Source of the DNA: Candidatus Omnitrophota bacterium
GTDB taxonomy: Bacteria; Omnitrophota; Gorgyraeia; Zapsychrales; Fredricksoniimonadaceae
Direction: 5' to 3'
Assembly (NCBI GenBank): GCA_903944345.1
Contig: CAJARJ010000015.1
Location: forward strand, 70,433 to 134,432
Length of the DNA stretch: 64,000 nt
Part shown: one piece after another, positions 18,176 through 46,273 of the stretch
Numbering within the stretch: position 1 is the first letter of the stretch
How the letters are laid out: each line of letters begins with the position of its first letter
Notes under the pieces: model-generated
Told to the model about the DNA's origin: nothing
Databases searched by the model: none
The model's input: the letters and a program-made list of their open reading frames with translations, nothing else
Position numbers and translations under genes: made by a program

Positions 18176-18796
18176 TCACACTTTTGCTGTCACCAGAAAT
18201 ATCCCGAAAATACGTTCGGCCCCGTTACCTGCGGGCCTGGTAACTCTGGCAGCTGAAGAAAAGCTGATCTCACTAAAGCCCGCCTCCTGCAAAACAACTG
18301 TCAGCTTCTCGTGCTTAAAACCATGATGAAAGACTCCTGTATTATCGGCATGAAACAACCCGTCTTCTTCATCCAGATCGGCCAGAGCAATCCTTCCTCC
18401 CGGCCGCAAAACTGCCTTGAACTGCGCCAAAAGCCTGGCAATATCCTGGATATGATGCAAAGTCATGCTGCTGACAACAAGATCGTAGACCCCCTCAAGT
18501 TGCTCCCCTTTGGTCAGGTCAGCCTGGACGGCTTCAAGATTCCCGATACCTGACAAACGGGCTTTCTCCCTGAGAACCGCCAGCATGCCTTCTGAACTGT
18601 CCAGCGCAGTTATCGTGCGCACAAAGGGTGCTACCAGAAGCGAAACCAGACCTGTCCCGCACCCGAAGTCCAGGACATCCATGTGCGGCCCGGGGCTGAC
18701 CCGCTGTAAAACAGCCGCAGCAATATCCCGGGCCAGACTGATTCGCATCGGAGTATCCCAGGCTGCCGCTTCCTTGTCAAAATTTCGTGTCTCCAT
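18176..18796 (-). CDS. Class I SAM-dependent methyltransferase
   Basis: Motif I VLDFGCGTGLVS (Methyltransf_11/25-like). Confidence 0.75.
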   Translation of the reverse strand: METRNFDKEAAAWDTPMRISLARDIAAAVLQRVSPGPHMDVLDFGCGTGLVSLLVAPFVRTITALDSSEGMLAVLREKARLSGIGNLEAVQADLTKGEQLEGVYDLVVSSMTLHHIQDIARLLAQFKAVLRPGGRIALADLDEEDGLFHADNTGVFHHGFKHEKLTVVLQEAGFSEISFSSAARVTRPAGNGAERIFGIFLVTAKV

Positions 18797-20498
18797 GCTT
18801 TCCCCTTTCTTCTGCTGTACTGAGAATCCCCCTGCGGTTCAACGCGGACACCACAGCTTTAATGGACGCTTTGCTAATATTCGAATCCACTCCGGCGCCA
18901 AAGCAGACAACCGCATCATCCTGACGAATCCCCGCATAGGCGATGGCTTTCGCATCGGCACCTTCTTCCAAAGCATGCTCTGCAAACATCACCACATCCA
19001 GCGGAATGCTGAAATAATTCCTGATGCCATTAACAAAAGCATCCACCGGACCGTTGCCGGCAGCCTGAATTATAACCTCGAGTCCGGATTTACAAAGGAC
19101 AGCAGCAATCTCTGTTCTCTGTCCCGGGCTTTTTTCTGTATTTATCTGGCAAGAGTTCAATTTGTACAACGGACACTCCTGCAAATACTCCCGTTCAAAA
19201 CAATCACGGATGTCCTGCGAGGAAAGCTCGGCCCCTGACTTGTCTGCCATCGCCTGAACGACTTGCGAAAAATCACGCTGCATCTGCTTGGGGATACAAA
19301 TCCCCCAGTCTTTTTCCATTATATAGGAAACACCGCCTTTACCCGATTGGCTGTTAATCCTGATAATAGACTCATAGCTCCGGCCGACATCCCGGGGATC
19401 AATGGGCAGATACGGAACAGCCCAGAACTTGCTCGGGGAAGATTGCCGGGCCTTCATTCCTTTGTTGATAGCATCCTGATGTGAACCGGAAAACGCCGTA
19501 TACACCAGCTCTCCAACATAGGGATGCCGCGGATGTATCTCCATACGGACACAGCGCGAATAAACATCCACCACATGCGCCATGTCGCTGAAATCAAGAC
19601 GGGGATCAACTCCCTGTGAAAAGATATTCAGTGCCATGGTCACAATATCCATATTACCGGTCCGTTCCCCGTTACCGAACAGAGATCCCTCGACGCGCTG
19701 TGCGCCGGCCAAAACAGCCAGCTCGGCTGCCGCAACACCCGTGCCCCGGTCATTATGCGTATGGACACTCAGAATAACCGCATCCCGGGCACGAATATTC
19801 CTGCTAAACCATTCAATACGATCAGCATAAATATTAGGAGTACACATTTCTACTGTCTCGGGCAGATTAATAATAACTTTATCCGCAGCCGACGGCGTCC
19901 ACACATCTGTCACCGCATGACAGATATCCAGCGCGAAATCCAGTTCCGTCCCCGGAAAACTTTCCGGGGAATACTGGAACCGGATGTCCGCATTGCCGGA
20001 TTCCTTCTTCAACCGTGCCATCAAACGCGCAGCATCCGTAGCGATCCTGATAATCTCTTCCCGGCTTTTGCCAAACACCACCTCACGCTGAACAGCAGAT
20101 GTGGAATTATACAAATGCACGATGACCCGTCGAGCGCCCTGGACAGACTCAAAAGTCCGCCTGATCAAATCTTCCCGTGCCTGGGTGATCACCTGGATAG
20201 TGACATCCCCGGGAATGCGGTCTTCCTCAATCAGTTTCCGGATAAAATCAAACTCGACCGCCGAGGCGGACGGAAAACCAACCTCGATCTCTTTAAATCC
20301 CACAGCAACCAGAAGATCAAACATTTCCGTCTTGCGAGGTATATCCATAGGCACGCTCAACGCCTGATTGCCATCACGCAGGTCAACACTGCACCAGACA
20401 GGAGCCTGGGTGATGACCTTGTCGGGCCAGCTTCGGTCCGGTATCTCGACCTGCGGATAAGGACGGTACTTCCCAAAGGGCATTGCGTCTTTCTTCAT
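18777..20498 (-). CDS. leuA: 2-isopropylmalate synthase (long LeuA form)
   Basis: About 573 aa. HMGL-like TIM barrel (VDLRDGNQA) plus a LeuA dimerisation region. Start at the ATG at 20498 with an AAAGGTGG RBS. The upstream leucine-rich leader and attenuator support the leuA call. Confidence 0.8.
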   Translation of the reverse strand: MKKDAMPFGKYRPYPQVEIPDRSWPDKVITQAPVWCSVDLRDGNQALSVPMDIPRKTEMFDLLVAVGFKEIEVGFPSASAVEFDFIRKLIEEDRIPGDVTIQVITQAREDLIRRTFESVQGARRVIVHLYNSTSAVQREVVFGKSREEIIRIATDAARLMARLKKESGNADIRFQYSPESFPGTELDFALDICHAVTDVWTPSAADKVIINLPETVEMCTPNIYADRIEWFSRNIRARDAVILSVHTHNDRGTGVAAAELAVLAGAQRVEGSLFGNGERTGNMDIVTMALNIFSQGVDPRLDFSDMAHVVDVYSRCVRMEIHPRHPYVGELVYTAFSGSHQDAINKGMKARQSSPSKFWAVPYLPIDPRDVGRSYESIIRINSQSGKGGVSYIMEKDWGICIPKQMQRDFSQVVQAMADKSGAELSSQDIRDCFEREYLQECPLYKLNSCQINTEKSPGQRTEIAAVLCKSGLEVIIQAAGNGPVDAFVNGIRNYFSIPLDVVMFAEHALEEGADAKAIAYAGIRQDDAVVCFGAGVDSNISKASIKAVVSALNRRGILSTAEERGKHGDTKF

Positions 20499-20552
20499 AA
20501 CAAACCACCTTTCATGGTTTACCGCCAATCTTCAAGGCCGACAGCTTTGGGA

Positions 20553-20591
20553 CAACAAAAAAGCCACCGGACTCCTGAAGAGTTGGTGGCA
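20553..20591 (-). terminator. Attenuator terminator in the leuA leader (GCCACC...GGTGGC stem followed by TTTTTTGTTGT)
   Basis: On the minus strand a hairpin (20591-20564) is followed by a U-tract, about 60 nt upstream of the leuA ATG and downstream of the Leu-rich leader ORF. Confidence 0.5.
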
Positions 20592-20649
20592 TTTGAATTT
20601 TAAACTGTTTCTATCCGGTCAATTCAACAAAACACACCTCTCTTCGGGC

Positions 20650-20718
20650 CTATCTTAAAGATAGGAGTAGGAGCTTTCCCGTAAGTCGGTTGTTGTGTTG
20701 TATTGAATTGCCGTTCAT
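20650..20718 (-). CDS. Leucine-rich leader peptide (MNGNSIQHNNRLTGKLLLLSLR)
   Basis: 22-codon ORF containing four consecutive Leu codons (ctc cta ctc cta) plus two more Leu, immediately upstream of the terminator hairpin. Classic leu-type attenuation arrangement. The RBS is weak. Confidence 0.45.
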   Translation of the reverse strand: MNGNSIQHNNRLTGKLLLLSLR

Positions 20719-20821
20719 AAGGTTAATTTATACCACCTCCTGCAATACCTGTCAAGCTCAGCAGCCTCTCAGACGGCATTCCACAGAAACGCAAAACAGC
20801 AAGCCCCAGAATCCGGCAACT

Positions 20822-21154
20822 TTAAAAGATCCATCTTATCAAACCGCCAACAAGCCTGAATGGCAAAGCAATCACCCATCCAATCGCGTGTATGGTCGAA
20901 CTTAATAGCCCTGGATGCCCTGCGTCTGTTTCGGTCGTTGCAGTCGTGCTTTCACTCTGCTGCGCCACACTATCCTGTTGACCTCCGGTACCCACCACTG
21001 CGCTGCCGGGGCGTTCCATCGTCATCGTTGTAGTGGTAGTGGTTGTTTTCTGTGTGCTGGCACAACCGGATCCAGCCAGAACCACACACACCGCAAAACC
21101 TAAATAGGCACTCTTAATGGCCCAGGATTTTAATGCCTTTATCCAGATTCTCAT
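20822..21154 (-). CDS. Hypothetical lipoprotein with Thr-rich low-complexity linker and C-terminal hydrophobic segment
   Basis: Signal peptide with lipobox (LAGSGC), then a TTTTTTTMTM tract. AAGGGGG RBS. Confidence 0.4.
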   Translation of the reverse strand: MRIWIKALKSWAIKSAYLGFAVCVVLAGSGCASTQKTTTTTTTMTMERPGSAVVGTGGQQDSVAQQSESTTATTETDAGHPGLLSSTIHAIGWVIALPFRLVGGLIRWIF

Positions 21155-21195
21155 GCCCGCCCCCTTGATTTCATAAACGATTCGCCAGGTTCAAC

Positions 21196-21357
21196 TTATA
21201 TCCGCTCTTTGAGTTTATCCGCAACCGTATCAATCCGGTCCTTGACCGCTCCTCGCAACTCGTCCGCCTCGCCTTCGGCTTTCAGGCGTTTGTTATTAGT
21301 CAAATCCCCGACGGCCTGCTTTATGCGGCCCCTCACTTTATCTACATGAACACCCAT
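21196..21357 (-). CDS. CsbD-family general stress protein
   Basis: MGVHVDKVRGRIKQAVGDLTNNKRLKAEGEADELRGAVKDRIDTVADKLKERI matches CsbD. Start at the internal ATG at 21357. Confidence 0.7.
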   Translation of the reverse strand: MGVHVDKVRGRIKQAVGDLTNNKRLKAEGEADELRGAVKDRIDTVADKLKERI

Positions 21358-21448
21358 ATTGCCCCCCTGTTTCAAAATACGGTTAAGTTTATTCACGGCG
21401 CTCCCCGGAGCGTCTGCCGTTCTTCCAGCTGCTTCGACTTAATATCTG

Positions 21449-21496
21449 ATTTTAGGGAGGAGACAAGAACAAATCAATTGTACTGCGGTACTACAG
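21449..21496 (-). promoter_or_regulatory. Conserved promoter family, copy a (TTGATT -35, 17 nt, TAAAAT -10) with upstream conserved block
   Basis: Minus-strand sequence ctgtagtaccgcagtacaaTTGATTtgttcttgtctcctcccTAAAAT. About 85 nt upstream of the CsbD ATG. Confidence 0.5.
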
Positions 21497-21524
21497 AGGA
21501 TGAAATTCATGTCCGTCAATCGCG

Positions 21525-22262
21525 TCAGTGCCCTTCGTCCAGCCCTTCTTGCCGAACATCCTTCCTGTTCTCATGTTCCCGCCCCGCATAAACTGTCCTG
21601 GGAGGAACAATGGTCCCCTTGGGAACAATCGCCCCTGCCGCGATTATCGCCCGGTCGCCGATCTGGCATCCGGGCATAATCGTGCAGTGTGATCCAAGCA
21701 GAACATTGCTTCCGATTTTCACTTTCCTTAGTTTCAGCGATCCCCTCTCGACAATGTGCCCGTTAATGATCGCTCCGCCACCAACAACCGTGTTGTCGCC
21801 GATCTCCAAAAGAGTCGCATCAAAAACAAATTTGGAATTAAAGTGCACATTCCTCCCCAACTTCGCACCCAGAAGTCGAAACAGAATATTGGCAAAAGGC
21901 GTAAGCAGAATAAAATCAATAAATGTATAATGCACCATCAAAAAAAGTGAACTCATAAAAGCCCACTTCATTGCCTGTATTGAAGAAAGCGGGTAAGTTC
22001 CCTCCTGTAACCTTAACCCCAGAATGCTCCGGAAAACACCAACCAGCAAGATCAACGTTACCCCGAACATAAAAAATCCCGCAGATATTGTGGCCCCCAA
22101 AAGAAACAGGCGCAAAACGGGTGCCGTGAACATCGTTATCTGCCAGACTTTTAGAAAGAGAGCTATGCCAGGAACCAGGGCCGCGCCAAAAAAGATCGCC
22201 CCCATTACATACATAAAAATCGCAAATAACAGCTGAATGGAAACTGTCAGCAACCAATTCAT
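21525..22262 (-). CDS. Membrane-anchored hexapeptide-repeat (LbH) acyl/acetyltransferase
   Basis: N-terminal TM helices followed by left-handed beta-helix repeats (IGDNTVVGGGAIINGHIV, IGSNVLLGSHCTIMPGCQIGDRAII). Start at the ATG at 22262 with an AGGAGA RBS. Confidence 0.6.
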   Translation of the reverse strand: MNWLLTVSIQLLFAIFMYVMGAIFFGAALVPGIALFLKVWQITMFTAPVLRLFLLGATISAGFFMFGVTLILLVGVFRSILGLRLQEGTYPLSSIQAMKWAFMSSLFLMVHYTFIDFILLTPFANILFRLLGAKLGRNVHFNSKFVFDATLLEIGDNTVVGGGAIINGHIVERGSLKLRKVKIGSNVLLGSHCTIMPGCQIGDRAIIAAGAIVPKGTIVPPRTVYAGREHENRKDVRQEGLDEGH

Positions 22263-37513: not shown

Positions 37514-40500
37514 TCACACCGTGCCATCCCGACTCCGAGCCCATTCGAAATCCGATGCCTGATCTTTTAACGAAAGAGAGGATTCTCGGCAGCACACTTC
37601 AATCTGATGATGCCGGCGATCATCAACCAGATGAATGACTTTATTCTCTTGTTTAACACCATCTACTGTCAATGACTCCTGGTTATTGCCGGAGGCCAGA
37701 CGTAAAACTTTTATCTGATAAATCGTCTCCCGATACCGATACTGTATTTTAAATTCTTTCCAGTCTAAAGGAATGCATGGTTCTATCGTTAATTGATCAA
37801 CTTGCAGCCTCAGCCCCAACAAAGATTCCAGTATCAAACGATACATCCAGCCTGCAGACCCGGTATACCACGTCCACCCGCCCCGCCCGATGTGGGGTGA
37901 AACACCATATACGTCAGCCGCAACTACATAAGGCTCAACTTTATAGGTATTAATATCCGCCAAAGATTTTGCGTGATTAACCGGATTGATCATGTCCAGG
38001 ATTTCCCACGCATGCCGGCTATCTCCCAGCCTGGCGAATGCCATGGCCGCCCAGATAGCCGCATGAGTATATTGTCCGCCGTTCTCCCTCACTCCAGGGA
38101 CATAGCCCTTGATATAGCCGGGATTCAGGCTGGATTTGTCAAACGGAGGATCAAGGAGCTGAACAATCCGGCTGTCCCGGCGAATGAGACGCCGACTGAG
38201 CGCCTCCATGGCCAGCTGCACGCGCCGGCCATCGCCTGCTCCGGAAAGAACCGACCAGCTTTGGGCAATGGAATCAATCTGACATTCCGTATTGCTCGCT
38301 GACCCGAGAGGAGCCCCGTCATCAAAATACGCGCGTCTGTACCACTCCCCGTCCCAACCATGCTTTTCTATGTTCTGGCGCAGCTGCATGCTCTGCATTT
38401 GACAAATCCCGGTGAAAGCTGAATCACCTCGCTCCTGTGCGATCCCGATAAACTGAACAAGCACCTCGTAGAGAAAAAAGCCCAGCCAAACACTCTCCCC
38501 TTTTCCTTTCTGGCCAACCAGATTCATCCCGTCGTTCCAGTCGCAGGATCCCATCAAGGGTAATCCGTGTTCCCCGAAAGCCAGGCCCCTGACAATAGCG
38601 CGCCGGCAATGTTCGTACAGACTCACCTTCTCCGGCGACTGGACCGGCAGATCATAATATGCGTCTTCATCCGCATTCACCGGCCTTCCCTGAAGAAGCG
38701 GTGTCAGTTCATCCAGCACTTCTGTATCCCCCGTAGTCAAAACATACCGGCATGTGGCTAATGGCAGCCAAAGATAGTCATCCGAACAATGGCTGCGCAG
38801 CCCCCTTCCCTCTGGTGGATGCCACCAATGCTGAACATCCCCTTCGTAAAACTGATGAGCCGCACATAAAAGCAAATGCTCACGCACAAGGCCCGGCTCG
38901 TTATGGATAAGCGCCATCACATCCTGCAGTTGATCCCGGTAGCCAAATGCTCCCCCGGACTGACAATACCCGCTGCGGGCCCAAAGGCGACAAGCCAGCG
39001 TCTGATAAAGCAGCCATCCGTTAGTCAATATGTTCAATGATTTATCGGGCGTTTCTACCTGCACCGCACCAAGAGTACGGGTCCAATACTCGGACACAGC
39101 TTCTGAAGCTTCCTGGGCACCGGACAAGCCACAGTAACGCTGAATCAACTTGCGAACATGCTCGATTCCTTGCCCCACTCCCAGCGTGAAAACAATCTTT
39201 CGTTCTTCTCCGTCAACCAAATCAAACGGAACCTGGATTGCGGCACAAGGATCCAAAGCCGCCCCCACCTTGCCGGAAAGATGCGCCCGCGACAATGCAG
39301 CCGGCTCTTGAACCGATCCGTTGCGCCCAATGAATTCCGTGCGGTCTCCGCTGATTGTTCTGGACATATCATCCACGCAAAAGAAGGCAATAGTCTCAGA
39401 GAATTCAGTATTGTACAGATTGCGCGCATACAATGCTCCGTTTACATGGTCAACCTCGGTCCTGACATGCATAGCCGTTTTTGAACGCATATCTCCCAAA
39501 ACCCATTCCACATACCCCGTGGCTGAAAGTCGCCGCGGGCGACCGGACATATTATGTATTGTCAAAACAGAAAATTTTACCGATGCATCGACGGCCACAT
39601 AAACACGCAATTCAGAATGAAGACCGCCCTCATTGTGTTCAAATACGCTGTACCCGAATCCGTGCCGGCTGACATAAGGCGCTTTCGAGCGACTCGGCCC
39701 GGGTGATGGCGACCAGAAATGACCGGTTTCTTCATCTCGCAAATATAAAGCTTCTCCTGTTAGATCGTTTACAGGGTCATTATTCCAGGGAGTCAAACGA
39801 AATTCATGGGCGTTTTCACTCCATGTATACGCGCAGCCGTTCTCTGAAACAATAGTCCCGAAATGAGCATTGGCCAGCACATTCACCCATGGCATCGGCG
39901 TCACTTGTCCTGACGAAAGCTTGATCACGTATTCACGGCCTTCCGGAGAAAAACCTCCCAATTGATTAAAGAAAACCAGATCATTGTCAGCGATATTTGC
40001 AGGAAGCGCCGCTTCGCGATGATGTGCTTTAAACGTCGCAAGGCGGGGAACAGGAACTTCGGCTGGATGACGAAGGTTAATTTGACTCGCCAGCGTTCCC
40101 CTGCGATCCGAAATAATGACCCGGGCGACTGACTGCAACAAGATGCGTTCCTCGCTGGATATCTGTTCAGCCGGCCTGACAAATATCTCGCCGGAATTAT
40201 GAGACAATTTACCCTGCCCACTCGCACTGATCAGTCCCATGATCTGCTCTTGCAGTAATTGCTGATAACCAGAAAGGGCTTCATTCCAGATGACCAGGTC
40301 AACCGCCAGGCCTTTTAATCGCCAATACGCATGGGCCTGCACCATCTGGCGGGCAAGTTCGATATGAGCAGGATCTCCTATCTGAAGGATCACAACCGGC
40401 AGGTCACCGGAAATAGCATTCCCCCATAGACCACTCTGCCCGCGGCGATTCTGCACAAGAACGCCAGAATCAGCACGCAACAATGAATGGGCATAAATAA

Positions 40501-43500
40501 TGAAACTGGCCAGATGTCCATACTGCTGAGCATCTGTCTCGGTAGCATTGAGTTGTCGTAAGACCACCTGGCTGTGTGTCCATGACAGCTCAAAAACCCG
40601 ATCCGCAATGCGACGATCCTGATATTTATCCACAAGAGCCAGAGCGTTTTCGCGGGTTTCACCAATGCCGGAAACCATATCAATAGTTACGACTTGCCCC
40701 GGCTCAAGGATCATCCGACTCCGGATTGCCAGAGCCGGATCCAGCACCGAACCCTGGCTTCCTGAGAGCGCTCCCAGATTATTCATCGCTACAGGTTTAG
40801 CAATAGTGTCCCCGCGGCCAATAAACAGCATCCGATCCGTCTCATAAGAAACCTTCTGGACATCAGCTCCATGCACTGACATTAAATGAAACAGCCAGGG
40901 GACCTGCTCATCGACAGAACGGGGACGCCGGGAGCAAAGAATCGCCTGCCGCCGCTCGACAATTTCTGTCTGCACAAAAAGATTGCTGAACATAGGATGC
41001 AAAACATCTGCGGCTTGTGGCGCCAGTACTACCTCCGCATAGCTGGTCACATCGATCTCCCGTCTTACCCGGGAACGGTTAGTAATCCGAACGCGTCGCA
41101 ATTCAATATCATCCTCCGGAGAAACAACAATCTCGGTATGCGTGTCCAGACCGTAATCACGCCGATTGAACTCCGCTCGCCCCTCGGAGAAAATGGCTTC
41201 ATAATTTTCTGACTGTTGAAGTGTCGGCTGAAAGGCGGTCGACCAGAATTGGCCAGTCGCCAGATCGCGAATGAAACAAAACATTCCCCAGTTATCGCAG
41301 GTAACGTCCTCGCGCCAACGGGTAACGGCAAGGTCTTTCCAACGGCTGTAGCCCCCTCCCGCATTCGTAACCACAACATGATATCTGCCGTTCGATAACA
41401 ACTGTACTTCCGGAATCAGGGTGTCCGGCGTTTTCAATACGCGAATGGGCGTCTGCACTCCGCTGGAAAGTGTTTGAATATTGGAAAGCTCATTGGCATG
41501 GACATAAAACGGAATGCTTTGCGGAACTCTCTCCTGAAGCAGCAATGTGGTTGCCTGAAAAAGCGGGTCGGACATAAATCGCTTTTGCATGGGACGGTCC
41601 AGTAACAGATAAGCCAAAGAAAGAAGACTCATGCCTTGATGATGAGCCAGGAACGAATGAAGTATCGTATTCGGCCTGCCTCTGCGCTGACGTGACGGAG
41701 TATGATCTACCGATTCATACAAGCCATATTTTCCCATCACCCCCTCAGCTTCAAGGCGCTGCAAATTCTGACATGCCTGCTCAGGCTCCACCATTAATGC
41801 CAATGCAGAAGCATACGGCGCAATAACCAGATCCTCCGCCAATCCGCGCTTAAAGCCTAAACCGGGAACGCCAAACGCGCGGTACTGATAGTTTAAACTA
41901 ACATCGATGGCACTATAACCCGACTCCGAAATGCCCCAGGCAACGCCACGCTGTTTTCCATATTCAATCTGCCTTTCCACTGCTGACTGACAAGTCTGCT
42001 CAAGCAAGGTATTTTCATATGTCGGCATCACTAAAAGCGGCATCAGGTATTCAAACATCGATCCGCTCCAGGACAAAAGAATTGATTTCCCGCCAGCTGT
42101 TGTAAGCAGGCGGCCAAGCGCAAACCAGCTTTCCTGAGGAATTTGTCCCTGCGCAATCGCAGTGAAATAGCACAACCTGGCCTCGGACGCCAAAAGATCG
42201 TAAGAACTTGCATCCAGTTTCCGTTCCTCAACATGATATCCGACTGATAACAGTCGCCGCACCGGGTCATAAAGAAAAGCATAATCCATCAGGGCAAAAT
42301 CACCCGATTGCCGGGCTAAGCGTTCTATATCTACAATCCTCCCACGCGCGCTGGCACCTATCTCGCCCGCAATCCTGGACAGCTCACGCAAGGTCGGTAT
42401 CCGTGTCATGCCGGCAAAATCATTCGGAACAAGAAGTTTCAGATCTTCCAGGGCATTACGGCATTGCTCAACAAAGGCACGGATCCACTCTGCCGCTGCC
42501 TGCTCGGACGCAGGAGAAAGTTTTCCGATAAATCCTTCGGCATTTCGGGGCAGCCGTTCAAGCCAGAAACGGATCTGTTCAAACGTGGGGTCGCTTACAA
42601 TACAAGCCGACTCAAGGTCTTGCTCCAGCGGAGCAAGCATAAGTGAATCCGGCTCCTTCATCGAATCCTTCAAAACCACAAGGGTGTCTCTTAAACCCTC
42701 AAACAACCGCGCCCCCAGAATGCTTTTGTCAACCAGAGCCAACAACCCCGGCCGTAGTGTCAAAAGAAAACCCGCCAGGTTGCCACTGTCCACTGTCGAT
42801 ATATAGCTTGGAAGAAGCGGTTGCAGCGATTGGGTATCATACCAGTTATAAAAATGTCCTCTCTCCCGTTTCAGACTCTCCATTGTGCGAAAAGTATTCC
42901 GGGTTCGTTCAATTAACGCCCCCGCCGATATGTAGCCAAAATCGTACGCAGACAAGTTTGCCAATAATGCCAGGCCTACATTGGTAGGTGACGTGCGCGG
43001 TGCAACCTTAATAGCGCGGTTTTCCTGATAGTTATCCGGGGGCAGCCAATGGTTATCAGGCCCGACAAATGTCTCAAAAAAACCCCAGGTTTTACGAGAA
43101 AGTTTACGAAGAAAAACAAGCTGTTCTGCACTGAGCTTTACTTCTCGCGGTTTTAATAACCGGCTAATCCACCAGGCAATCGCTGGAGACGCGCCCCATA
43201 ACAACAAAACCGCACCCGCCGCACTCAAAGCCCACGGGTCTGTTACCATCAAATAGACGAACATCAATGCCGCAATCGCCGGTGCAATCCACATCAACCG
43301 GAACGAACCAATCAAGTCTGCGCAGCGCACATCCTGATCCGTAGTCGAATTCCATTCCAAAAGACCTTTGCGGGTTATAATCATCCGCACTCCGGTGCGC
43401 AGAATCGCATCCAGACAAAAGAACGCCTCATACGGAAGACACACAAAAGTGAAAGCCCTTTGAGCAAAACACCAGCCCGTGGAACGTGCAACCGTCTTTA

Positions 43501-46165
43501 GGTGCAGTGCCAACAGAACATCCTTCGGTTTGTGTAGCGCGTCCAAAAATGAAGTGATCATCGGAGGGAGAAAAAGGATCCCGAGAACTGTCCAGGTCCA
43601 GAACCCGGGTGACAACCAAACCGTCCACCCCATCAATAAAAGAATAGTTAACGCCCCCGGCACAAGACTGCGCCGCAAATTATCCAGGATTTTCCATTGC
43701 GATAACTGCGAAAGGATATTTCTCTGTTTATCGCGGTTTAATGCCGGCACTTTTGACCATAACCATCCTGCTATCTGCCAATCTCCACGAATCCAACGAT
43801 GCCGACGCTTGACATCCACACTGTAACAAAAGGGATACTCTTCATAAAACTCCACATCACTTAACAACCCTGAACGCGCATAACACCCCTCAACCAGATC
43901 ATGACTAAGAATTCTTCCCTCAGGAAAGCGCCCTTTAACTGCTTGTTCAAATACATCCAGATCATAAATTCCTTTGCCAATATATGAACCTTCTTCGAAA
44001 ACATCCTGGTAAGCATCGGACACCATACGCGTATAGGGGTCTATTCCCGGTTCACCACCGTACAGGCGTGCATAATAAGAACGGTTTGCGCTGGGAAGAC
44101 TCATGCTCACCCGCGGCTGAAGGATGCCATACCCCTCGCTTACACATTGCTTGCTTTCGTCATAGAGGGCCCGATTCAGCGGATGAGCCATTGTTTCTAC
44201 AAGTTTACGTGCGCAATCACGTGGCAGTTGAGTATCTGTATCCAATGTAATGATATATCTAACATCTTTCAGGATCGCCATGTCGCCGACAATAAGTGCA
44301 AACTTTTCCTTTACCCCCCCGCGCAGAAGGCTATTCAGGTCCGCCAGTTTCCCCCGCTTTCGCTCATAACCCATCCAGATCTTATCCAGGGGGTTCCAGC
44401 GCCGAGGACGATGAAAAAGAAAAAAGATGCCGTCTTTTCCATTTCTGTATTTTGCATTAAGCTTTTCAATGTTTGATTGAGCCAACTCCAGGAGGAATTT
44501 GTCCTCAGGCAATTCTTCCTGAAACGCATCCCGGAAATCCGTCAATAAACCAAAATGCAGATGCTCATCGCGATTAGCCAGGAACCGCACTTCCAGTGCC
44601 TCAACAAGACTTTCTATATTCTGCGCACTGGTGATCATCGTGGGGACAACCGTTAAAGTCCGGAATGCCGGGGGAATCCCATTGGAATAGTCCATCCGTG
44701 GCAAGCACCGGGGCGTTACAAGAGCCATCGCCAGGCCGTTAACCAGCTCTAAAGCCAGCTGACTGACGGCAACGATTACAAGAACACCAAGAATTATGAA
44801 TTGTCCGCCAGAAACATTCCTGATGTTCGGATCGGCGAATAAGACACCCGCCAGGAGAAGTGTGCTGATAACAATCGCTCCCAGATACAGAAATATTGAA
44901 TATCGTTTAGCAGTCCTGGCTAGAATACCTGGAGTGGAAAGATATACCTGCGCCACTCGTTCAAGCTGAGGAAAGCCTTTATCAATCAGATAGAAACCAA
45001 CATGTGCCGTGCGATCAGAATTTCCAGTCTTGCGCGCTGCCTCATCTGCCAATTGGATCGCCAGTTGCGCCACTTCGGATTCGGTATACCTGCTCCTTTT
45101 CGCTGTTTTCTCTACAACATGACGATAACGATCTCTTGTAGTAAAATCCATCTGACAATAATACTCGCCCGGATCAGCCCGCAATATCTTCTCAACAGCA
45201 CTCATCTTTTCAACAAATTCCCGCCAATCCATAGCGCTTAACAAACGAAGGCTGCCAATACTATTACTGATAGAAACCTGATCAGCCGCCTGATGCTGAT
45301 TCCCCAAATGAACCAAATGCTCGATCGTCAACCCGGCCTCGGAAAGCCACTGCTTAACCCAGGTCAGAGGCAATGCCAAAGACGGACTCTGTCCAGATAA
45401 ACGGCGGGTTAGTTCAGCAATAAATGCATTCGACATCGGCGGCTTGGAGCGTGCCATGTCGGCAACTACCAGTATTAAGCTTTTGGGATCCTTTTCAGCA
45501 ATCAAAGCCATTTGGTCTGCCCAAAAATTAGCCAGATCCTGATCGGTCCTTTCAACAATAATGCGGGTGGCGACCCGCCTTAGATTCTCAATCAGAGCAA
45601 GACGCAGCATAATCGGTATGCCCCACAGTTCACCCAGATCGAGGGGCGTAATTTTCTGATAGGCCACGACAAAACAACAAAGAATTTCCGGATCTACCCG
45701 TCCGTCGCCATGAGCAATCATCTCCAGGGCAATGTCATACACACGAGGCAACCCCGCAGACGCCCCGTTGATTAAAAGAGGCAATTCCCGATGATAACTC
45801 TTGGGCAAATGCCGCTCGGCTATACGTACTTGTTCTTCGATCAGATAGAAATTGTCAAGCAGCCATTCTCCCGCCGGCGTAATTAAACGTTTGGCATTCA
45901 CCGCTGCCGTCAGCAAGGTATGGGCTCCAAGCAGAAGATCTTCGTTCTCAGCCAGTTTGGTCAGAAGTAATTGAGAACCACGCACCCTGGTTAGTCTGTG
46001 CATGCCCGCCAACACTTTGCCATGCTGCTGCATCTGACTACTGCTGAACAATTCCGAACGCAACGGCGACTCTTCCGGCCCATGTTTTATAACCAGATTT
46101 CTCGCGAACAGATGCGCATACCATCCTCGAAATAATATCTTTATCGTCGTGACAATACCCTTCAT
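37514..46165 (-). CDS. Cyclic beta-1,2-glucan synthase (NdvB/ChvB/Cgs-like; GT84 plus GH94 domains)
   Basis: 2883 aa. N-terminal TM region with a DxD glycosyltransferase core (IITLDTDTQLPRD). Large C-terminal GH94 (cellobiose-phosphorylase-like) region whose C-terminus is WYTGSAGWMYRLILESLLGL. Start at the ATG at 46165 with a GGAGGTG RBS. Confidence 0.75.
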   Translation of the reverse strand: MKGIVTTIKILFRGWYAHLFARNLVIKHGPEESPLRSELFSSSQMQQHGKVLAGMHRLTRVRGSQLLLTKLAENEDLLLGAHTLLTAAVNAKRLITPAGEWLLDNFYLIEEQVRIAERHLPKSYHRELPLLINGASAGLPRVYDIALEMIAHGDGRVDPEILCCFVVAYQKITPLDLGELWGIPIMLRLALIENLRRVATRIIVERTDQDLANFWADQMALIAEKDPKSLILVVADMARSKPPMSNAFIAELTRRLSGQSPSLALPLTWVKQWLSEAGLTIEHLVHLGNQHQAADQVSISNSIGSLRLLSAMDWREFVEKMSAVEKILRADPGEYYCQMDFTTRDRYRHVVEKTAKRSRYTESEVAQLAIQLADEAARKTGNSDRTAHVGFYLIDKGFPQLERVAQVYLSTPGILARTAKRYSIFLYLGAIVISTLLLAGVLFADPNIRNVSGGQFIILGVLVIVAVSQLALELVNGLAMALVTPRCLPRMDYSNGIPPAFRTLTVVPTMITSAQNIESLVEALEVRFLANRDEHLHFGLLTDFRDAFQEELPEDKFLLELAQSNIEKLNAKYRNGKDGIFFLFHRPRRWNPLDKIWMGYERKRGKLADLNSLLRGGVKEKFALIVGDMAILKDVRYIITLDTDTQLPRDCARKLVETMAHPLNRALYDESKQCVSEGYGILQPRVSMSLPSANRSYYARLYGGEPGIDPYTRMVSDAYQDVFEEGSYIGKGIYDLDVFEQAVKGRFPEGRILSHDLVEGCYARSGLLSDVEFYEEYPFCYSVDVKRRHRWIRGDWQIAGWLWSKVPALNRDKQRNILSQLSQWKILDNLRRSLVPGALTILLLMGWTVWLSPGFWTWTVLGILFLPPMITSFLDALHKPKDVLLALHLKTVARSTGWCFAQRAFTFVCLPYEAFFCLDAILRTGVRMIITRKGLLEWNSTTDQDVRCADLIGSFRLMWIAPAIAALMFVYLMVTDPWALSAAGAVLLLWGASPAIAWWISRLLKPREVKLSAEQLVFLRKLSRKTWGFFETFVGPDNHWLPPDNYQENRAIKVAPRTSPTNVGLALLANLSAYDFGYISAGALIERTRNTFRTMESLKRERGHFYNWYDTQSLQPLLPSYISTVDSGNLAGFLLTLRPGLLALVDKSILGARLFEGLRDTLVVLKDSMKEPDSLMLAPLEQDLESACIVSDPTFEQIRFWLERLPRNAEGFIGKLSPASEQAAAEWIRAFVEQCRNALEDLKLLVPNDFAGMTRIPTLRELSRIAGEIGASARGRIVDIERLARQSGDFALMDYAFLYDPVRRLLSVGYHVEERKLDASSYDLLASEARLCYFTAIAQGQIPQESWFALGRLLTTAGGKSILLSWSGSMFEYLMPLLVMPTYENTLLEQTCQSAVERQIEYGKQRGVAWGISESGYSAIDVSLNYQYRAFGVPGLGFKRGLAEDLVIAPYASALALMVEPEQACQNLQRLEAEGVMGKYGLYESVDHTPSRQRRGRPNTILHSFLAHHQGMSLLSLAYLLLDRPMQKRFMSDPLFQATTLLLQERVPQSIPFYVHANELSNIQTLSSGVQTPIRVLKTPDTLIPEVQLLSNGRYHVVVTNAGGGYSRWKDLAVTRWREDVTCDNWGMFCFIRDLATGQFWSTAFQPTLQQSENYEAIFSEGRAEFNRRDYGLDTHTEIVVSPEDDIELRRVRITNRSRVRREIDVTSYAEVVLAPQAADVLHPMFSNLFVQTEIVERRQAILCSRRPRSVDEQVPWLFHLMSVHGADVQKVSYETDRMLFIGRGDTIAKPVAMNNLGALSGSQGSVLDPALAIRSRMILEPGQVVTIDMVSGIGETRENALALVDKYQDRRIADRVFELSWTHSQVVLRQLNATETDAQQYGHLASFIIYAHSLLRADSGVLVQNRRGQSGLWGNAISGDLPVVILQIGDPAHIELARQMVQAHAYWRLKGLAVDLVIWNEALSGYQQLLQEQIMGLISASGQGKLSHNSGEIFVRPAEQISSEERILLQSVARVIISDRRGTLASQINLRHPAEVPVPRLATFKAHHREAALPANIADNDLVFFNQLGGFSPEGREYVIKLSSGQVTPMPWVNVLANAHFGTIVSENGCAYTWSENAHEFRLTPWNNDPVNDLTGEALYLRDEETGHFWSPSPGPSRSKAPYVSRHGFGYSVFEHNEGGLHSELRVYVAVDASVKFSVLTIHNMSGRPRRLSATGYVEWVLGDMRSKTAMHVRTEVDHVNGALYARNLYNTEFSETIAFFCVDDMSRTISGDRTEFIGRNGSVQEPAALSRAHLSGKVGAALDPCAAIQVPFDLVDGEERKIVFTLGVGQGIEHVRKLIQRYCGLSGAQEASEAVSEYWTRTLGAVQVETPDKSLNILTNGWLLYQTLACRLWARSGYCQSGGAFGYRDQLQDVMALIHNEPGLVREHLLLCAAHQFYEGDVQHWWHPPEGRGLRSHCSDDYLWLPLATCRYVLTTGDTEVLDELTPLLQGRPVNADEDAYYDLPVQSPEKVSLYEHCRRAIVRGLAFGEHGLPLMGSCDWNDGMNLVGQKGKGESVWLGFFLYEVLVQFIGIAQERGDSAFTGICQMQSMQLRQNIEKHGWDGEWYRRAYFDDGAPLGSASNTECQIDSIAQSWSVLSGAGDGRRVQLAMEALSRRLIRRDSRIVQLLDPPFDKSSLNPGYIKGYVPGVRENGGQYTHAAIWAAMAFARLGDSRHAWEILDMINPVNHAKSLADINTYKVEPYVVAADVYGVSPHIGRGGWTWYTGSAGWMYRLILESLLGLRLQVDQLTIEPCIPLDWKEFKIQYRYRETIYQIKVLRLASGNNQESLTVDGVKQENKVIHLVDDRRHHQIEVCCRESSLSLKDQASDFEWARSRDGTV

Positions 46166-46273
46166 GCTAACACCTCCGAACATGAGCAGAAAAGGCTGGC
46201 ATGATCTGCTCCGTCCTTCATGTTCCTAAAATGTTGCTCTATAAATACTATTTTCTTCTATCCAGAGGACATT

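Follow-up and report, generated by a model that had tools for sequence, protein, structure and literature searches.

A probable leucine-responsive transcription attenuator, predicted to be leaderless, upstream of long-type leuA in Candidatus Omnitrophota

Introduction

In enterobacteria, leuA is preceded by leuL, a short open reading frame (ORF) followed by an intrinsic terminator, where the position of the translating ribosome sets the outcome among protector, antiterminator and terminator structures; in Escherichia coli K-12, leuL (MTHIVRFIGLLLLNASSLRGRRVSGIQH) contains four rare CTA codons and has a GGAG Shine-Dalgarno (SD) sequence, and the LeuA enzyme of this system is of the short bacterial type (TIGR00973). 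Leaders with runs of Leu codons also lie upstream of leuA in Actinobacteria (PMC1262725; PMC5784534), among them the leu leader peptide MNRANLLLLRRGGSQA of Corynebacterium diphtheriae (PMC5784534), and the actinobacterial LEU element has been described as a pseudoknot whose base stem joins the Leu codons to the leuA SD sequence, in which no classical terminator is obvious (PMC1262725). Staphylococcus aureus, too, has been described as having a leucine-rich attenuator peptide (PMC5794164). The theme of the present report is an element upstream of leuA in a 64,000-nucleotide (nt) stretch of a Candidatus Omnitrophota assembly (GCA_903944345.1, contig CAJARJ010000015.1, positions 70,433 to 134,432), referred to below as the window and numbered from its first letter. 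As in leuL, a leader ORF with four consecutive, rare Leu codons is followed by an intrinsic terminator ahead of leuA, and ribosome position is predicted to decide among protector, antiterminator and terminator; as in the LEU element, the gene is preceded by an ORF containing a Leu-codon run. We consider it very probable that the Omnitrophota element controls leuA by ribosome-mediated transcription attenuation in response to leucine.

Leader peptides may also be encoded by transcripts that begin at, or next to, the start codon. Transcription of the C. diphtheriae ilvB leader starts at the leader start codon (PMC5784534), fourteen putative leaderless leader peptides have been listed in Deinococcus deserti (PMC4007540), and polycysteine leaderless short ORFs are known from mycobacteria (bioRxiv 10.1101/834739). 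For Corynebacterium glutamicum ilvB, two functions have been proposed for a 5' hairpin (PMC11857589): it would prevent leaderless initiation and would serve as an anti-antiterminator. We discuss below the evidence for the Omnitrophota element, its spread among long-type leuA loci, the other explanations that may be offered for it, and its relation to these systems.

A conserved leader ORF with rare leucine codons

All elements of the attenuator lie on the minus strand, upstream of leuA (18777-20498, ATG at 20498), the gene taken to be regulated, which the ORF list and profile matches assign to the long, 'yeast-type' 2-isopropylmalate synthases (NF002991, 857 bits; TIGR00970, 736 bits with a cut-off of 697); the short bacterial model TIGR00973 gives only 186 bits, with a cut-off of 599. 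The leader ORF (MNGNSIQHNNRLTGKLLLLSLR; 20650-20718) has 22 codons and a TAG stop, its start lying 220 nt and its stop 152 nt upstream of the leuA ATG. Leu is specified by six codons, of which four are consecutive (CTC CTA CTC CTA, codons 16-19, 20662-20673) and are taken as the regulatory ones, the others being CTT (L12) and TTA (L21, 20656-20658). The run is made up exclusively of CTA and CTC, the two rarest Leu codons of the window, whose shares of the Leu codons in its 26 long ORFs are 2.5% and 6.1%, respectively. The window has, on its two strands together, 477 ORFs of 12-40 codons that begin with ATG, and among these the leader was the only one to encode LLLL, or at least five Leu in seven residues. 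An earlier note on this DNA, made from the sequence alone, had reported the 22-codon ORF and its four Leu codons without stating the strand, along with a GC-rich GCCACC...GGTGGC hairpin and U tract about 60 nt before the leuA ATG; both are present, the distance from the T6 tract to the ATG being 58 nt.

Related leaders were collected from genome and metagenome scans (L001, L002, L081, L082 and L086) and from exact-protein look-ups (L161-L171), giving 17 leaders with that of the window, or 16 complete sequences once L163, truncated at its 5' end, is set aside. The complete close relatives have LeuA proteins of the Omnitrophota type with 63-88% identity: 79% and 70% in Candidatus Omnitrophota metagenome-assembled genomes and up to 88% in metagenomic relatives. 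Promoter, ATG, in-frame Leu cluster, protector hairpin and terminator follow in the same order in all 17 leaders (with the said truncation in L163), and while the genes upstream vary among relatives, the leader always accompanies leuA.

The presence of the leader ORF in relatives, which the earlier note had named as a check, extends to every close relative, and the way in which the ORF varies is that of a coding sequence. In the alignment, gaps from the ATG up to the Leu cluster are all exactly 3 nt long, Leu codons number 5-11 per leader in frame and 0-5 in the other frames, and Leu is retained through synonymous changes, all six Leu codons occurring across the leaders. The 3-nt indels and the synonymous Leu changes argue for translation, and the leader ORF is, judged by its conservation, probably a genuine coding unit. 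One part of it, CGACTTACGGG (codons 11-14), is nearly invariant in relatives even at third codon positions and hence appears constrained as RNA.

Promoter and predicted leaderless start

A -35 box, TTGACA (20750-20755), and a -10 box, TATAAA (20727-20732), are separated by 17 nt, and the latter ends 8 nt before the leader ATG. Both are conserved: in all 16 complete relatives a TTGAC[N]-17 nt-TAnnnn promoter is present, and 6-9 nt separate the end of its -10 box from the ATG. No SD sequence stands at a usable distance from the leader ORF, the nearest GGAGG lying 17 nt upstream, within the promoter spacer. A generic promoter and terminator scanner called nothing here, its patterns excluding -10 boxes that end in A and stems with internal loops. 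Since the short distance from -10 box to ATG is kept in all 16 relatives, the leader transcript is predicted to be leaderless, or to have a 5' untranslated region (UTR) of at most ~3 nt, with a start site placed by promoter geometry at the AUG or no more than ~2 nt from it.

Protector and terminator hairpins

Minimum-energy folds of the leader RNA without a ribosome give the same arrangement in the window and five relatives, namely an ORF-enclosing hairpin of ~95-98 nt, an A-rich spacer, and the terminator. The protector, or anti-antiterminator, hairpin of the window (~98 nt; 20616-20713), delimited by its minimum-energy fold and by covariation, is built around the entire leader ORF. Within it, segment 1 (CGACUUACGGG, codons 11-14, 20678-20688) supplies the 5' strand of the helices by which segment 2 is sequestered, counted as helices 4-5 in the alignment. 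At its tip, the apical hairpin CCUAUCU-UUA-AGAUAGG (20649-20665) has the last Leu and Ser codons as its 5' arm and includes the UAG stop in its 3' arm; as helix 6 of the alignment test, it is paired in 83.9% of cells, and four of its pairs show compensatory changes.

The intrinsic terminator (20557-20590) consists of a stem-loop, GCCACC(aaCTCTtcaGGAGtcc)GGTGGC (20590-20563), and a U6 tract (20562-20557). Its hairpin has an energy of -15.4 kcal/mol (z -3.45), a value equalled by only one of 200 shuffles. Across the leaders, terminators range from -14 to -25 kcal/mol and are followed by at least five U, and this helix (helix 7) is the best conserved and best covarying of all, with 96.3% of cells paired in the 16 sequences and compensatory changes at four pairs.

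Taken together on the alignment of the 16 leaders (A2), with slid pairings and 500 shuffles as controls, protector and terminator are paired in 78% of cells as against 35-48% for slid controls, include 19 pairs changed on both sides (a number reached by 2/500 shuffles), and have a covariation score of 0.232, compared with 0.173 for shuffles, none of which (0/500) scored as high.

Antiterminator and ribosome position

An antiterminator exclusive with both structures can be formed between segment 2 (GAAGAGAGGUGUGU, GAAGAG-A-GGUG-U-GU, 20632-20645), its 5' strand, and segment 3 (UGCCACC-AA-CUCUUC, 20577-20591), which is the 5' arm of the terminator; the two were located by nascent folds, an anchor-based search and pairing counts, with GAAGAGAGGUG as the antiterminator-strand stretch and the terminator 5' arm as its pairing partner. 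In the nascent folds, the RNA made before the terminator 3' arm emerges was folded with a ribosome placed at chosen codons, in six sequences. A ribosome on any of the Leu codons allowed the antiterminator to form in 6/6, and with the ribosome at the stop codon the GAAGAG helix was lost, the energy for the window changing from -19.4 to -12.0 kcal/mol. The anchor-based search found that a two-helix antiterminator can be drawn in all 17 leaders, its helix A tracking the inner terminator arm as this changes (GAAGAG:CUCUUC, GGAAG:CUUCU, UAAGAAG:CUUCUUA, UGAG:CUCA and GAG:CUC), and antiterminator pairing reaches 88.8%, as against 44-66% in slid controls. The alternative pairing that the earlier note had asked for is, in other words, there to be found. 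As regards the columns involved, 12/12 of the 5' strand are also paired in the protector and 10/12 of the 3' strand belong to the terminator arm, an overlap which makes mutual exclusivity a property of the structure itself.

The spacing of these segments also fits the dimensions of a ribosome. A ribosome stalled on the Leu run would have segment 1, which is 5-15 nt upstream of the run, within its trailing half. Segment 2 starts 5 nt past the stop codon in the window and, for most relatives, 0-7 nt past it; the leader ORF runs through segment 2 in L165, L168 and L170. As modelled, the pairings 1:2, 2:3 and 3:4 are the classical attenuator arrangement.

Several results weigh against this account of the switch. 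A ribosome at the stop codon would still leave room for a partial antiterminator, in which GGUG.GU pairs with the CCACC region. Antiterminator covariation is not significant (0.172 compared with 0.153, with 47/500 shuffles as high) and just two pairs show double changes, which may be put down to the high conservation of both strands. The energy of the segment 2:3 duplex is only modestly better than that of dinucleotide-shuffled spacers (z from -0.4 to -3.5, with -0.40 for the window), in a test of low power because strands rich in G and in C retain fair pairing after shuffling. Equilibrium folds in which only a 30-nt ribosome footprint was masked kept the terminator in every state, from which it follows that the switch must be kinetic and co-transcriptional, like classical attenuators; such footprint-masked folding was dropped as a test, the 5' half of the ORF re-pairing around the ribosome in a sterically unrealistic manner. 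Finally, with no SD sequence before it, translation of the leader ORF hinges on the predicted leaderless start.

Distribution among long-type leuA loci

The wider survey covered 156 loci encoding long-type leuA, with the reverse complement of each as control. An upstream small ORF with at least five Leu in seven residues was present in 85/156 loci and in 2/156 reverse complements, and a Leu-rich ORF with a hairpin and U-run terminator no more than 150 nt downstream in 101/156 and 0/156, respectively. The 80 source-named loci include Chlorobium, Desulfobulbales, Spirochaetia, Alphaproteobacteria, Chloroflexota and Auribacterota, the other 80 being metagenome contigs; examples of leaders in this wider set (L001-L160) are those of L004, L018, L033, L060 and L122. 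The view expressed in the earlier note, that attenuation by Leu-rich leaders is seldom reported outside gamma-proteobacteria, was overstated, given these 101 loci in many phyla and the cases described in Actinobacteria and S. aureus. Many Desulfobulbales leaders encode '…TVAG…' by codons (ACGGUGGC) that, by inspection, are a copy of the terminator 3' arm, and these codons can be read as an antiterminator strand placed within the ORF.

Clostridial long-type leuA loci have T-boxes instead, with scores of 110-118 bits (L045, 272-529; L064, 635-883; L069, 512-761; L076, 1156-1432). Their occurrence at the same place in orthologues suggests a hot spot here for the sensing of leucine or tRNA-Leu, and the alternation of T-box and leader peptide there is, as read from the sequences, a switch of sensing system between lineages. 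The element of the window is not among catalogued RNAs: an Rfam search of positions 19500-22000 with E values up to 10 gave no T-box (RF00230), Leu_leader (RF00512) or other relevant match, and in a search of 20 loci at gathering thresholds only the clostridial T-boxes were matched, the Leu-leader loci matching nothing.

A covariance model built from the Omnitrophota-type leaders alone (R1) scores Chlorobium-type leaders at 43-49 bits and an Auribacterota leader at 39 bits. Because terminator hairpins are near-palindromic, they also give R1 scores of up to ~36 bits on their reverse strand (window 20510-20602, plus strand; L082 1094-1203, minus; L167 585-706, minus), and ~36 bits may be taken as the practical noise floor of the model for distant homologues. 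Distant kinship through R1 is reasonably supported for the Chlorobium-type leaders only. A GCCAC(C/G)G terminator arm is common to the Omnitrophota-type, Chlorobium-type and Desulfobulbales leaders. The retrieval of Chlorobium-type and Auribacterota leaders by R1, together with the shared arm, hints at a family that crosses phyla, and we raise tentatively, as a doubtful extension, that the leaders form one old, uncatalogued RNA family tied to long-type leuA, of which the Omnitrophota branch would be leaderless. Under this extension, the protector may be both an anti-antiterminator and a gate on loading of 70S ribosomes at the leaderless AUG, in which event untranslated leaders would always terminate, and the hairpin that sequesters the leuA SD (see below) may be a second, translational checkpoint on read-through transcripts.

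Proposed mechanism and alternative explanations

The high probability that we give to leucine-responsive attenuation of leuA draws on the elements themselves and on how well they are conserved, on the ORF's coding signature, on covariation of protector and terminator, and on the conserved pairing and the geometry of the antiterminator. Ribosome-mediated attenuation in the manner of leuL, which the earlier note had put forward, is supported by the agreement among elements, conservation and mutually exclusive folds. From these we infer the site of transcription start, leaderless translation, ribosome stalling and the actual response to leucine, in the following scheme. A near-consensus sigma-70 promoter would start the RNA at or near the leader AUG, and the 22-codon leader would be translated as a leaderless mRNA. 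Without a ribosome, the leader would fold into the ~98-nt protector, where segment 2 (GAAGAGAGGUGUG) is sequestered by segment 1 (CGACUUACGGG) together with the ORF's 5' half; with the protector in place, the GCCACC…GGUGGC-U6 terminator would form and RNA polymerase would halt 58 nt short of leuA. Were Leu-tRNA ample, the ribosome would reach the UAG codon and its leading edge would cover the GAAGAG of segment 2, so that the terminator again forms. With charged tRNA-Leu scarce, the rare codons CUC CUA CUC CUA would stall the ribosome, whose footprint would cover segment 1 and melt the apical hairpin; segment 2, freed in this way, would pair with the emerging terminator 5' arm (CACC..CUCUUC), preventing the terminator and allowing read-through into leuA.

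The explanation that best survives beside this one, improbable as we judge it to be, is that a structured RNA sensor, be it a riboswitch or a protein- or tRNA-binding RNA, operates the terminator without translation and that the ORF is a by-product of constraint on the RNA. The long protector hairpin, well conserved and covarying, is what such a sensor would offer, the near-invariance of CGACUUACGGG at third positions places part of the ORF under RNA-level constraint, and the leader ORF has no SD sequence. A by-product ORF sits poorly, however, with a frame strictly kept through 3-nt indels only, an ATG held at 6-9 nt from the -10 box in 16/16 relatives, and Leu enrichment confined to frame 0 and maintained by synonymous changes. 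Neither a T-box nor any other Rfam family was matched up to an E value of 10, and the occurrence of Leu-rich ORFs in unrelated leaders across phyla (101/156 loci, 0/156 in the control) is not explained by a ligand-binding fold.

Somewhat less probable again is control that is mainly translational, exerted through the leader ORF and a hairpin that sequesters the leuA SD, with the terminator weak or incidental. The leuA ATG is preceded by AAAGGTGG, and the 5'-UTR downstream of the terminator contains a module (20502-20545), recognised in folds. One part of it (20545-20521) is a hairpin that resembles a terminator but lacks a U tract; the other is a small hairpin, AAACCAU/GUGGUUU (20520-20502), into which the SD sequence AGGUGG (20510-20505) falls. 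A similar SD hairpin with an upstream (A)ACCACC-like anti-SD recurs in most relatives (L081, L164, L166, L167, L082, L168 and L171), with compensatory variants such as GGUUACC/GGUAGCC in L171, and a precedent is offered by the LEU element, where the Leu codon run pairs with the leuA SD (PMC1262725). Against such a role for the module, the terminator is strong and canonical, being paired in 96.3% of cells, the SD hairpin of the window is weak, with a probability of being unpaired (0.34) equal to that of shuffles, and the Leu run CUCCUACUCCUA shows, by inspection, no complementarity to AGGUGG. Modelled SD accessibility, moreover, was equal in terminator- and antiterminator-enforced states in 5/6 sequences. 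On the same values, lower in the sixth sequence, we rejected a cascade in which, following antitermination, the freed 3' arm (GGUGGC) of the terminator would capture the downstream ACCACC anti-SD and so leave the leuA SD exposed.

That the ORF is there by chance beside an ordinary terminator or insulator at which transcripts of the upstream genes end, with no switch at all, might be argued from the abundance of small ORFs (477 in the window) and from the silence of the generic scanner on both promoter and terminator, but is, on comparative evidence, effectively refuted by the conservation of the ORF, its LLLL being unique in the window, by the TTGACA-17-TATAAA promoter between upstream ORF and hairpin, by the constancy with which the leader stays with leuA while upstream genes differ, and by the reverse-complement control (0/156 loci).

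Comparison with known systems

The leucine-responsive attenuator proposed here follows a mechanism that is not new: it would be known attenuation logic in a little-studied phylum. A 2010 comparative survey by Lopatovskaya et al. reportedly predicted classical attenuation of amino-acid operons in several phyla. The likeness to leuL is one of design, with no detectable homology in sequence or structure, R1 scoring 2 bits on the E. coli leuL region; homology hinted at by the resemblance of the peptides ('R-x-T/I-G-LLLL') was considered and set aside, being undetectable at the RNA level. The systems differ, besides, in that leuL has an SD sequence whereas the window leader lacks one and is predicted to be leaderless, in the type of LeuA regulated, long (TIGR00970) here and short in the leuL system, and in the enclosure of the entire ORF of the window leader within one long hairpin.

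Unlike the LEU element, the window leader has a canonical terminator and an antiterminator, and its Leu run (CUCCUACUCCUA) is not complementary to the SD; in minimum-energy folds, the SD pairs with the nearby AAACCAU instead. Clostridial T-boxes (RF00230), which occupy the same position, have the same output, conditional termination before leuA depending on tRNA-Leu charging, but sense uncharged tRNA directly by RNA-tRNA pairing, whereas the window leader is predicted to sense it through the translating ribosome. With respect to known attenuators with leaderless leader peptides, the phylum, amino acid and gene are all different, and leaderless status in the window is deduced from promoter geometry; the protector hairpin may share the double role proposed for the C. 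glutamicum ilvB hairpin. Predicted leaderless translation and an ORF wholly inside the protector helix are traits worth noting, yet both have precedents. Our literature search for papers linking Omnitrophota to attenuation or to leaderless leaders found none.

Genomic neighbourhood

No leuB, leuC or leuD adjoins the leuA of the window. The last 20 nt of leuA overlap a gene for a SAM-dependent methyltransferase (18796-18176, minus strand), which is followed by a gene for a Fur-family regulator (18077-17601, minus). The order leuA-methyltransferase-Fur is seen also in L161 and L162, and a methyltransferase gene follows leuA in L168 as well. The overlapping methyltransferase gene is probably under the attenuator too, and attenuator control may extend in this way to genes without a role in leucine synthesis.

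On the other side of the leader lies a gene for a hexapeptide-repeat transferase (22304-21525), and between the two are two small ORFs (20822-21396, minus), one (21396-21196, minus) CsbD-like (Pfam PF05532, E 1.6e-12) and the other (21154-20822, minus) encoding a Thr-rich protein of 110 amino acids without a family match. In L161 and L162, whose LeuA is 88% identical, the hexapeptide gene is only ~445 nt from leuA, and the ~580-nt stretch with both small ORFs looks like an insertion/deletion difference from these relatives. Elsewhere, the window has a very long ORF of 2889 codons (37514-46183, minus).

Conclusion

The leader described here provides a testable cis-regulatory annotation for leucine biosynthesis in Omnitrophota, a phylum that is uncultivated. 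Seen more broadly, leader-peptide attenuation would be a common form of control of long-type leuA, to judge from about two-thirds of the 156 sampled loci, in many phyla. As no Rfam model matches these leaders, genome annotation misses them, and the 16-sequence alignment with its model could seed a family. The Omnitrophota leader is, in addition, likely to be a further case of leaderless translation in attenuation, outside Actinobacteria and Deinococcus.

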